50,091 nt of DNA, taken from NCBI GenBank assembly GCA_050049995.1, contig JASFVE010000002.1:1-50091 (forward strand), given 5' to 3'. Shown in pieces: positions 43,985 through 50,091 of the stretch; position 1 is the stretch's first letter, and every line of letters begins with the position of its first letter. The DNA is from Chlamydiota bacterium. Lineage in GTDB: Bacteria; Chlamydiota; Chlamydiia; Chlamydiales; SM23-39. The notes beneath the pieces were generated by a model that saw nothing but the letters and a program-made list of their open reading frames with translations, ran no database searches and was not told the DNA's origin. The position numbers and the translations under genes were made by a program.

Positions 43985-46900
43985 ATGAAAAAACTGCTCT
44001 TTTTTGTTCTTTTGTTTTCCAACCTTTTAGCTCAGGAAGTAAATGACTTAACAGTTTCTGCCGGGGTTTCTGCCGCAAAAATAGCCAACTGTGTAGATGT
44101 GATATCAGGATGCTATTTTATTGCGGAAACAGATCTAGTGGTAGAAGGAGCGGAACCCATTAAGCTGCGAAACAATTACATAGGTCAGTATCCCAAAGCT
44201 CCTTTTTCCGGATGGTATAGGTTTGCTCATATAACACTTTCTTATCACCCTTCTACGGGCATGCTTGAAATGACGGATAAAGATGGCGTTAAGTTGGTCT
44301 ATCGCACATCTTCCAGGTTTAAAAAACCTAGAGTAAAAAAACCTTTTTGGAAACTGTGGGAAGGAAAAAAAGCCAAAAGAAAAAGAAAAGAAAAAAATAT
44401 CAGAAGAAAAGAAGAAAGTCTTCAACCTCACCCGGCTAGATTGCTACATGGAAAAAGTTTGGCAGGCCTTTCTCATGCACCACAGGAAGGAAAAGACAAC
44501 GCTATTAATAACTATGTAGAGTTGACTCATGATAAAAAATATGTGTATGTATATACCCCTTCGGGAAATTTGCTTATATATAGAAGGATACCTTCTAAGC
44601 CTCCTAAAAAATTTGAAGATGCTGTCAGTTATTTTTGCTACTACCTACTTATAGAAGAAAGAAATAGGAATGGAAGAAAAACGCTTTATGCCTATGACGA
44701 TAAAAACCAATTAATAGGAATTAAAACAACTAACCTGCAAGAAAGTAAAGTCTACTCTTCTGTCAACTTTATTGATCTTGGAAGAAATTTTACTGATCTT
44801 GATACCACTTCAAGCGATGGAAAATCCCTCAGTCTACGCTATCGCCATTACCAAGCTGGTAAGGCGTCTATCAATGTCTTGACAGAAAGTCAAAATAGCA
44901 GCCGACCTAAAGAAACATACCACTATAGTTTTGATCCTTCTTATGGGGTTTCTTTAACGGAAAGACACTGGCCTGATGGCAGAAAGATGGTTATAGAGTA
45001 TTACCAAAAAGGACAAAATCAAGTTCATGGACAAACAATTACTATCTCTTCTCTGGATGATAAGAGAATAGGCAGGGTTAAAGCATTAAAATCTCCTGTT
45101 GGAGAGATGGGAGAAATAGAAACTATCTATGAATTCATCTATGAGATAGGAAAAGTAGGTGAGACTCCCGGAAAAACCTATGTCTATGACGCAGATAAGA
45201 ATCTTAGCCTGTATTATTACTCTCCTTACTTAAGATTGGAGAAAATTGAAAGGTATGAAAATAAGCAAAATGTCCAACATTTGAAAGCCATTGAAAAGTT
45301 TATTTGGGGAAAGGAAGGAACTTCTTTAGAAACCTATTTGTTATGTCATGCTTTTTGTGATGCTGATGGCAATTGTTTGAAAGCAAAACAATATACATAC
45401 GATGCCTTTGGAAATGTCTTTCAAGAGACTATCTTAGGAAATATCTCTCAACAAGGGTCTATCACTTTTGGACCGGATAGTTTACCTCTTTCCAATGGTG
45501 TAGAGTCTTGTACAACGATCCGAGAATTTTCTCAGGACGGGAAAAATCTTTTACTAAAGGAAATACTGCCCAATGGACAGATCCGAGAATATGAGTATGA
45601 TGAAAATTCCGGGGAACTTATTGCAAAGTTTATCTCAGATCAAAACGCTATTTTGCTTAGGAGTTTTTATTTTTACGATGAAGATAATTTCCTAATTCAG
45701 GAAATTACTGATGATGGTATCACTAAAGACTTTTCTAATTTTTCCGGTGTAACAGAAAGAAAAATACAGAAAATTCATAGAATACCAAATGGCCCTTTTG
45801 TAGGGCTTCCTTGCAGACTCGAAGATAAATATCTCGACCTTAACACGCAGCAAGAGCAACTTATTTCAGCTGTGGATTTGCATTATTCTCAAGAAGGGAA
45901 AGTTACCCAAAAAGACTTCTATGACAAACAAAATTATTTTGTGTATTCCTTACATTTTCAATATGACAAACAGGGAAATATCCTTTCTCAAACCAATGCC
46001 AAAGGACAAGAGGTCTTATTTACTTATGACTCCAACCAAAACTGCACGAGTATTTATGATACAGCCAAGAAACTCACTACTAAACATTTGTATGACTTAT
46101 CTAACCGTCTTATGCAATCTTCCCTTATTTCTGCAGAAGGAAAAGAGTTTACTTTCCAGTTCAGTTATAACAAAAAGGGCTTTTTACTCTCTGAAAGAGA
46201 CTATGCAGGCAACTGCACATTTTATGAATATGATCTTTTTGGCAATCCTATAAAAAGAACTCTTCCAGGTATCCTTACTGACTCTAAAAAATTAGGGTCA
46301 CCTGTTTACACAGCTGAGTATGATCTTTTTGGCAACCTATTATCGGAAACGGACCCCAAAGGGCATACAACAACTTATCAATATAACGTCTATAATAAGC
46401 CCCTATTGACTATCAAACCTGATGGCAGCAAACAGGCCTTCGCGTACTATCCCAATGGCGACCTTAAAAGCCAGATAGACCCGTATGGAACCAAGCAGGT
46501 TTATTACTATGATGCTCTTCAAAGGCTAACAACTAAAGAGGTTTATTCCACTTCAGATTCATTACTGCTCAAGGAAGCAAAAAATTACTCTTCGTTTAAC
46601 TTGTTAGAAGACATAGATGCTATGGGCTATGTAACTACTTACGAGTATAATTTTGCAGGTCAGAAAATAACAGAAACACGAGAAGGAGAGAAAAAAGAGT
46701 TTTTTTATGACTCAATGGGAAGACTATCAAAAACACAACTTGCCGATCATGCCCAAATCATAAAATATGACATTTTAAATCGATGCATCGAAGAAAGTTC
46801 TCAAGACTTGCAAGGGCATACCATTGCTAAAAGAAGCTATCAATATGATGAGGCCGGCAATCAATCTGTTATAACTAACTACATAGGAAATAAGCCGGTT

Positions 46901-49964: not shown

Positions 49965-50091
49965 TTATACTCCAGAAAAGCAAATCACTTACGAGTATGA
50001 TAGCTTCCATCGAAGAGTGGCTAAATACGTTACTTCAGAAAATGGCTTATCAAGCACCACCAAGTTTATCTTTGATGGGCAAAAGGAAATA
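49954..50091 (+). pseudogene. start-less orphan Rhs core fragment (continues beyond window)
   Basis: 49969-50091 repeats 48137-48259 with a single mismatch (122/123). It encodes TPEKQITYEYDSFHRRVAKYVTSENGLSSTTKFIFDGQKEI. The frame is open only from 49954 (a TAG at 49951-53) and has no start codon. Confidence 0.8.

Follow-up and report, generated by a model that had tools for sequence, protein, structure and literature searches.

A chlamydial Rhs/YD-repeat locus with a predicted Sec signal peptide, a putative hydrolase toxin tip, a candidate lipoprotein immunity gene and orphan cassettes

In the catalogue of polymorphic toxins compiled by Zhang et al. 2012 (PMC3482391), which is purely computational, export by means of a signal peptide ('T2SS/Sec-dependent', T2SS being the type II secretion system) is the default pathway, RHS repeats figure among the architectures, many RHS-linked toxin domains are recorded in chlamydiae, and the alpha/beta-hydrolase toxin domains designated Tox-ABhydrolase-3 lie close to class-3 lipases. 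Experimental work exists on the WapA proteins, YD toxins that depend on Sec and are accompanied by immunity genes (PMC12704120), and a 2026 report on bacterial teneurin-like proteins describes YD-shell toxins with immunity genes that are targeted to Sec through signal peptidase I (SPI) or II (SPII) and occur in diderms, their delivery mechanism being called unknown (PMC13018210). In the literature on chlamydial Rhs or YD proteins nothing was found beyond the tables of Zhang et al. 2012. Here we describe an Rhs locus located at positions 43985-50091 of a 50,091-bp contig of a Chlamydiota bacterium (JASFVE010000002.1, assembly GCA_050049995.1); the whole contig was analysed and is referred to as the window. 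The locus encodes a large Rhs protein with a signal-peptide-like N-terminus and a C-terminal tip predicted to be an alpha/beta-hydrolase, followed by a putative lipoprotein immunity gene and by the start of an orphan cassette (Table 1). It fits an established class, defined by comparative genomics in 2012, and we consider it probable that the system is a Sec-exported, Rhs-encapsulated serine hydrolase toxin with periplasmic lipoprotein immunity and recombining orphans, which probably serves in competition among related chlamydiae.

The locus shares with the class of Zhang et al. 2012 the signal peptide, the RHS repeats, the C-terminal toxin, the immunity gene and the stand-alone cassettes and, as in the Sec/T2SS RHS class (PMC3482391, Table 1), no other secretion-specific leader domain is present. 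The immunity partner is distinct, ABhydrolase-3 domains being paired in that catalogue with Imm66, Imm69 and SUKH, whereas the partner found here belongs to an exported lipoprotein family. The WapA proteins of Bacillus subtilis and Streptococcus suis present the same succession of Sec signal, YD shell, Rhs core, polymorphic tip and downstream immunity gene, and mediate interbacterial competition without a type VI secretion system (T6SS). WapA tips act in the cytoplasm of the target cell, and the WapA immunity proteins are likewise cytoplasmic. However, WapA belongs to monoderms and carries cell-wall-binding domains, whereas the host of the present locus is a diderm, no such domains were found by Pfam in its Rhs protein, and its immunity protein is a putative periplasmic lipoprotein.

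Rhs effectors of the T6SS (Photorhabdus Rhs1, 7q97; Vibrio RhsP, 8h8a; Pseudomonas RhsA/Tse5) possess a homologous shell and core (E 1e-35 to 1e-42), and also an autoprotease motif, an encapsulated tip, an immunity gene and orphan arrays, but in place of a PAAR, VgrG or prePAAR module the window protein has a Sec signal. The teneurin-like proteins (9pt5, 9ifo), known from diderms and monoderms, have polymorphic C-terminal toxins and a core that aligns with that of the window at E ~6e-10, yet none of their TTR, FN-plug, NHL-propeller and TIP domains was detected by Pfam in the window protein, which has about 200 residues ahead of the shell. The Tle/Tli pairs resemble the tip and its partner in combining a serine alpha/beta-hydrolase with a GxSxG-type elbow and a periplasmic or lipoprotein immunity protein, a pairing that implies membrane action from the periplasmic side. 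In contrast to the present tip, Tle effectors lack an Rhs shell and depend on a T6SS for delivery, and neither DUF2235 nor any other Tle-associated Pfam family matched the tip.

The Rhs gene starts with an ATG and spans positions 43985-49450 of the forward strand, giving a product of 1821 amino acids (aa); an alternative in-frame TTG at 43952 would extend it to 1832 aa (43952-49450). Its reading frame of 5.5 kb is intact and its GC content (0.367) is near that of the rest of the window (0.347), so that there is no sign of recent import. The initial annotation had described this open reading frame (ORF) as an 1821-aa protein with many YD repeats and had proposed that hidden Markov models be run on it. 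Both the Pfam RHS_repeat model (E 2.3e-62) and the NCBIfam YD_repeat_2x model (E 2e-45) match the protein, as does the Rhs_assc_core model (TIGR03696; 73.9 bits, cut-off 32.5), with repeat and core scores far beyond chance, and the shell also matches the solved Rhs shells 8h8a and 7q97 and the teneurin-like shell 9pt5. The end of the core reads ...RYYDPEIGRW...NDPLNHWDLYGL, its final letters are RYYDPEIGRWITTDPKGYADGIINLYAYVLNDPLNHWDLYGL, and its terminal residue is L1563 (48671-48673), where the TIGR03696 match closes, in agreement with the canonical core end that had been recognised at 48629-48673. The core-end motif of the PxxxxDPxGL type is present as the variant DPLNHWDLYGL. When the core is aligned to TccC3, YenC2 and other solved cores, the aspartates of the TccC3 motifs SSDPAG and LLDPDGL, which we take to be D651 and D674, correspond to the autoprotease aspartates D1535 (48587-48589) and D1559 (48659-48661), and autocleavage is predicted after L1563.

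In the N-terminal segment MKKLLFFVLLFSNLLA a basic n-region precedes a core of 12 hydrophobic residues, and the cleavage motif LLA, with Ala at -1, comes last, a textbook n-h-c organisation. Signal-like N-termini occur in nearly all of the 26 closest Rhs homologues and in 19 of the 23 complete Rhs ORFs with a related tip, which substantiates the earlier mention of a signal-peptide-like segment. The other four ORFs are short (1452-1562 aa); in two of them the open frame has no Met within its first 120 aa, and at least some of the four are probably incomplete. The stretch of about 200 residues between signal peptide and shell contains a weak match to DUF6531, a domain precomputed in many homologues; the conserved motif of this region aligns family-wide, and the domain is probably the plug of the shell. 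The same stretch contains a K/R-rich insertion resembling a nuclear localization signal (NLS), with 20 K/R among the 55 residues surrounding it (aa 111-165). This insertion was considered as a general feature of the family and rejected, being restricted to one lineage: it occurs only in the window and in the 90%-identical copy of the metagenome-assembled genome (MAG) 'Chlamydiae bacterium CG10_big_fil_rev_8_21_14_0_10_35_9' (CG10 MAG), and is absent from 10 other family members.

As regards delivery, no PAAR, prePAAR, VgrG, SpvB or TcB domain was found in the Rhs protein with Pfam and NCBIfam models at E values up to 0.1, and about 30 further ORFs of the window, when scanned, yielded no PAAR, VgrG, Hcp, T6SS, toxin complex (Tc) or extracellular contractile injection system (eCIS) domain, which bears out the earlier impression that nothing nearby resembles VgrG, PAAR, Hcp, TcA or TcB. 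Also, no T6SS or Tc genes occur within 8-10 kb of four relatives (L005, L006, L007 and L089), the neighbourhoods of which include genes typical of chlamydiae, for example those of a V-type ATPase operon and of a TLC nucleotide transporter. To our knowledge no T6SS has been described in Chlamydiota. The chlamydial pangenome paper mentions neither T6SS nor toxins nor Rhs. Cargo of the T6SS is picked through association with the tube or spike and not through a short signal peptide (bioRxiv 10.1101/2024.02.26.582050), so that a cleavable Sec signal argues against T6SS loading, whatever the genome holds. Judged from its sequence and those of its relatives, Sec export of the Rhs protein has good support, and delivery by way of a T6SS or Tc machinery is unlikely. 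That a conventional machinery of T6SS, eCIS or Tc type is encoded elsewhere, the N-terminus being prePAAR-like or a membrane anchor helix, appears very improbable: the closest solved shell homologues are T6SS Rhs effectors and some T6SS Rhs proteins do lack PAAR, but neither PAAR, VgrG, prePAAR nor SpvB is present, the n-h-c signal with its Ala at -1 is conserved in distant relatives, the immunity proteins are exported, and neither the window nor the neighbourhoods of the four relatives showed a gene of T6SS, eCIS or Tc type.

The suggestion of the initial annotation that the protein is Sec-exported therefore stands, with the support of the signals conserved among its relatives, while the qualification of this route as unusual does not, given the class of Zhang et al. 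2012, WapA and the teneurin-like proteins. The assumption made there, that Rhs toxins are normally delivered by a T6SS or as C components of Tc toxins, was incomplete, since the signal-peptide class had already been catalogued. For the crossing of the outer membrane by the shell, the T2SS-like system associated with protein secretion in Chlamydia (PMC4793230; PMC5826181) is an obvious candidate.

Downstream of the core, the tip is encoded by nucleotides 48674-49447, with the stop codon at 49448-49450. The length of about 258 aa and the place assigned to it earlier were correct; its description as unrelated was not, homologous tips (22-35% identity) being present in 13 of the closest Rhs homologues. 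The view of the tip as a unique domain was accordingly rejected, and it is the commonest tip in this Rhs clade. A search of 1.84 billion cluster representatives with the tip profile recovered 4867 proteins at E<=1e-3, of which 1211 reach E<=1e-30; many have a length of 1400-1800 aa and carry the domain at their very C-terminus. The family of Rhs-hydrolase fusions that includes the tip is accordingly very large. When 17 tips are aligned, G82, D120, S161 and D209 (tip numbering) are invariant, H160, G163 and H239 nearly so, and the nucleophile elbow is of the GxSxG type, here HSFGG. The predicted catalytic triad is formed by S1724 (49154-49156), D1772 (49298-49300) and H1802 (49388-49390), with the His kept in at least 90% of the tips.

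The AlphaFold2 (AF2) model of the tip, built on the 17-tip alignment, has a predicted local distance difference test score (pLDDT) of 81 overall and above 90 in the hydrolase core, and consists of a disordered linker of about 60 residues followed by a minimal alpha/beta-hydrolase. Foldseek matched this model (E ~2e-5 to 1e-4) to RavL, B. subtilis LipA, cutinases and a lysophospholipase, the Legionella effector RavL being the best structural match, and the tip profile also finds class-3 fungal lipases among solved structures. Two of the 17 related tips match the Lipase_3 model, and the weaker Pfam matches of the tip are to other alpha/beta-hydrolase families. On these sequence and model grounds the tip is most likely a small serine alpha/beta-hydrolase, presumably a lipase, phospholipase or esterase acting on envelope lipids. 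In three proteins matched by the tip profile (P0219, P0242 and P0175) the Rhs part is followed by the hydrolase and then by a Ser/Thr protein-kinase domain (Pkinase); these would be two-enzyme warheads and may hint at eukaryotic targets.

The ATG of the next ORF (49452) lies 1 nucleotide (nt) after the stop codon of the toxin gene, as had been pointed out previously. Its 170-aa product is the putative cognate immunity protein, with a hydrophobic N-terminus in which MKFLYLLILILLLS is directly followed by Cys, forming a lipobox. No match to it was found in Pfam, NCBIfam or PADLOC, and the model of its structure, based on a 4-sequence alignment, reached a pLDDT of 67 and gave no significant Foldseek match (best E 0.08). 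Its homologues include copies with 85% and 33% identity and one in the CG10 MAG with 75%, and four tandem homologues of 167-177 aa follow the Rhs gene of Chlamydiales bacterium SCGC AG-110-M15, the Rhs protein of which is only 29% identical to that of the window. A profile search with the immunity alignment, limited by its word index, gave 9 matches.

Association of the two families was assessed with tip and immunity models on six-frame translations of 87 loci and of the last 10 kb of the window (88 sequences). The tip was found in 48 of these and the immunity family in 45, with nearly complete overlap, and in tip-bearing loci the immunity gene abuts or overlaps the Rhs stop, runs of 2-4 copies being common. 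A hydrophobic N-terminus resembling a signal was found in nearly all immunity ORFs with a start (58 out of 61), and the lipobox is clear in at least 25 of them. Export of a conserved toxin partner suggests that self-protection and, by inference, toxin action occur outside the cytoplasm; extracytoplasmic action would follow the same logic as that of the Tle lipases with their periplasmic Tli proteins. Behind a single Rhs gene, up to four immunity paralogues stand in tandem in L005 (13658-15912), L024 (5724-7931) and L040 (1638-4133); those of L005 are mutually 51-88% identical, resembling the poly-immunity loci of other polymorphic toxins.

Beyond the immunity gene, the initial annotation had reported a near-exact repeat of the 3' end of the core. 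The repeat is indeed near-exact (99%), but it starts 537 nt upstream of the core end. The orphan copy in the window has no start codon of its own and ends at the contig edge; the assembly evidently broke inside the core repeat. The same junction is found in four metagenome contigs close to the window (L003, L008, L009 and L050), in which the orphans continue into alternative hydrolase tips and immunity genes. In L009 the order is the end of a first tip, its immunity gene, a core fragment (from the equivalent of 48137 to DLYGL), a second tip, a second immunity gene and a further core fragment, which starts at the window equivalent of 47968. Its two tips are 31.7% identical and its two immunity proteins, both lipoproteins, 32.1%, while at the DNA level the identity amounts to 92% until 6 nt past the core end (L1563), after which there is no DNA match. 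This is the pattern of variable tips over conserved cores that the initial annotation had proposed looking for. In the same contig (~1450-1460) a 1-nt deletion at the junction of core and tip (TTAGAG to TTGAG) puts the second tip out of frame, being either a genuinely silenced cassette or an assembly error.

In L008, 86%-similar versions of tip and immunity gene precede an orphan with the tip of the window (96% DNA identity), so that a given warhead is found in the expressed slot of one strain and in the orphan slot of another. The L050 contig, 98% identical to the window end, has an orphan of reduced length: 81 aa of core lead directly into the C-terminal portion of a variant tip, and a further immunity variant comes next. 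L003 repeats the layout of the window at 92% DNA identity. None of the orphans has a start codon of its own and they look like silent cassettes. The array is the C-terminal displacement architecture classic for Rhs loci, and the toxin, immunity and orphan-cassette layout first proposed for the window is real, as judged from the domain matches and from the cassette arrays of the related contigs. In contrast to classic Rhs loci, however, all cassettes are here of the same enzyme type, with co-diverging immunity.

The absence of start codons from the orphans, one of them frameshifted, and the existence of YD-shell proteins that are adhesion molecules, such as teneurins, would also agree with a YD-repeat protein that is located at the surface or in the periplasm and is not toxic (an adhesin or a structural protein of teneurin type) or with a decaying remnant, the downstream ORF being unrelated. 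We regard this as highly unlikely, considering that the 5.5-kb frame is intact, that the autoprotease aspartates and the Ser-Asp-His triad are conserved, that in 45 loci the tip is accompanied by the downstream gene family, and that the 4867 cluster representatives with this tip suggest strong maintenance.

For a toxin of this kind, the following course of events can be proposed. The 1821-aa precursor would cross the inner membrane via Sec and lose about 16 residues to signal peptidase, after which the YD repeats would form a closed shell with the DUF6531-like N-terminal domain as its plug. The aspartyl autoprotease of the core (D1535/D1559) would cut after L1563, leaving a tip of about 30 kDa enclosed in the shell. 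Passage of the outer membrane might occur through the T2SS-like system or by release and, upon entry into the target, the S1724-D1772-H1802 triad of the tip would attack envelope lipids from the periplasmic or outer side. The 170-aa lipoprotein, presumably translationally coupled to the toxin, would protect the producer's periplasm, a compartment crossed by the toxin, and the promoterless orphan cassettes could replace the expressed tip by recombination in the conserved core end. The likeliest use of such a system is competition between related chlamydiae that share a host cell or niche, the target presumably being a relative of the producer.

Several observations weigh against this interpretation. 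The signal peptide was judged by hand, and the Lipase_3 match is borderline (22.7 bits for the isolated tip, 18.1 for the full protein, cut-off 22). A shell of about 200 kDa must exit a diderm cell and reach its target, and obligate intracellular bacteria meet competitors rarely. Also, most family members carry the same tip family, so that the locus is polymorphic in sequence and not in enzymatic type, which is also compatible with a conserved role directed at the host.

The main rival explanation is that the system is directed at the host. The shell would release a lipase or esterase into the inclusion lumen or onto the membranes of the host (amoeba), for instance for nutrient acquisition, membrane remodelling or exit, and the lipoprotein would only shield the producer's envelope during periplasmic passage. 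The organism is a chlamydia and presumably intracellular, and Zhang et al. 2012 (PMC3482391) argue that intracellular bacteria mostly aim such toxins at their hosts; the constancy of the enzymatic type across the family, the best structural match to a Legionella effector and the protein-kinase domain that follows the hydrolase in some relatives agree with this explanation, as does homology of the tip family to DUF687, a family of predicted inclusion-membrane proteins. In contrast, tight, co-diverging toxin-immunity pairs are a signature of conflict between bacteria, and so are tandem immunity arrays (of up to 4 copies) and orphan cassettes swapped between strains. Host-directed effectors seldom need diversified immunity, and an adjacent immunity gene is the mark by which Zhang et al. 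2012 (PMC3482391) recognise intra-specific use. On balance a host-directed role seems unlikely, though far from negligible, and competition among chlamydiae is retained as the preferred interpretation.

The link to DUF687 (PF05095) was provided by three of the 17 related tips, which match this Pfam family with a best E of 5.3e-16. The tip of P0016 (aa 1649-1831) matches positions 34-209 of the 537-position model at 53.2 bits (cut-off 25; E 2.4e-14). The tip of the window itself does not match DUF687 and is 35% identical to that of P0016, on which its homology to DUF687 rests and is thus transitive only. DUF687 comprises CT326 of C. trachomatis and CPn0066, CPn0069, CPn0381 and CPn0882 of C. 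pneumoniae, which are predicted inclusion membrane (Inc) proteins (PMC3048545), and has been described as alpha/beta-hydrolase-like without catalytic residues, combined with a transmembrane bundle (PMC11878206). The proteins of this family are chlamydia-specific, stand alone and measure ~560-620 aa; the transmembrane bundle is C-terminal, and the part homologous to the tips is the N-terminal alpha/beta-hydrolase. The Rhs tips keep the Ser-Asp-His triad, whereas DUF687 is reported to be devoid of catalytic residues (PMC3048545, PMC11878206). Conservation of the triad in the tip sequences suggests that DUF687 may have originated from a toxin domain, or the reverse.

Table 1. Positions of the features of the Rhs locus and of the adjoining chlamydial genes in the window.
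Feature	Position (nt)	Residues	Strand	Basis
Predicted Sec signal peptide (signal peptidase I), MKKLLFFVLLFSNLLA followed by QE	43985..44032	1-16	+	Hydrophobicity profile, A-16 cleavage motif
DUF6531-like N-terminal domain	44087..44299	35-105	+	Pfam, 16.4 bits, under the 24.1 cut-off
K/R-rich insertion, NLS-like, KKPRVKKPFWKLWEGKKAKRKRKEKNIRRKEE	44315..44434	111-150	+	Alignment with family members
RHS/YD-repeat shell (start approximate)	44657..48448	~225-1488	+	RHS_repeat, YD_repeat_2x, matches to solved shells
Rhs-associated core domain	48449..48673	1489-1563	+	TIGR03696, E 1.1e-20
Toxin tip (predicted alpha/beta-hydrolase), 258 aa plus stop	48674..49450		+	Lipase_3, conserved triad, AF2, Foldseek
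Putative cognate immunity gene, 170-aa lipoprotein	49452..49964		+	Lipobox, linkage to tip family
Orphan cassette start, copy of core 3' region	49969..50091	copy of 1385 onward	+	122/123 identical to 48137-48259
ileS	36912-40016		+	Chlamydial backbone
lepB (long, 623 aa)	40024-41895		-	Peptidase_S26, E 1.6e-32
CT021-family gene	42057-43058		-	Pfam CT021, E 2.2e-34

The Rhs locus adjoins a conserved chlamydial synteny block formed by ileS, a long lepB and a CT021-family gene, an order which matches that of CT019-CT021 of C. trachomatis. The closest genome, the CG10 MAG, has the same gene order (contig L004), and its Rhs protein, 90% identical over aa 3-1477, likewise ends at a contig edge. The chlamydia-like backbone with ileS and lepB as neighbours that had been recognised earlier is thereby confirmed, by the Pfam CT021 match and by synteny with the CG10 MAG.

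Upstream of and divergent from the Rhs gene lie two tandem paralogous genes for small membrane proteins of 98 and 85 aa (43129-43425 and 43476-43733, both on the reverse strand). In the CG10 MAG a single 86-aa ORF, matched by position alone, is found at this place. Neither these two proteins nor the tip have a match in PADLOC. A scan of positions 43400-50091 for promoters and terminators was uninformative, the promoter-like sites not exceeding those of shuffled sequences and the terminator-like sites being few. Further upstream, accessory-looking genes (MepB-like, DUF1543 and RhuM family virulence protein, at 18482-18991, 26619-27224 and 29980-30603) stand among several ORFs without Pfam match, and this stretch may be an island.

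One family member, in L007 (GCA_036704275.1, a 1.8-Mb contig), has a different tip of transmembrane type and is located next to a V-type ATPase operon. Split genes are numerous in its surroundings (valS, DAHP synthase, Na/Ala symporter), pointing to a symbiont genome in decay within a larger assembly. Also, the dnaB gene of a CG10-like chlamydia (L001 4722-7445, L002 4445-7168) is interrupted by an intein that includes a LAGLIDADG endonuclease domain.

With the full Rhs protein, the genome-collection scan returned a single locus, that of the CG10 MAG, and the taxonomic breadth of the family is inferred from the neighbouring genes and from a few named matches. A wider proposal, which we advance tentatively and consider doubtful, is that the module is phylum-wide and constitutes the main weapon of chlamydiae, which are not known to have a T6SS, against other chlamydiae or co-symbionts in shared host cells, and that DUF687 descended from its toxin domain with loss of the triad. 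The size of the family, the intracellular setting and the link to DUF687 add to the interest of the locus. Warfare between bacteria inside host cells has barely been explored, chlamydiae being usually discussed in terms of host-directed effectors of the type III secretion system (T3SS), and competition among environmental chlamydiae is suggested by the existence of a large toxin-immunity family that diversifies and can exchange its cassettes. The locus also provides a first functional hypothesis for an immunity family without a match in Pfam, NCBIfam or PADLOC, suggests an evolutionary origin for DUF687, and may offer a tractable model for the delivery of cargo by Sec-dependent Rhs/YD shells from diderms that possess no injection machine.

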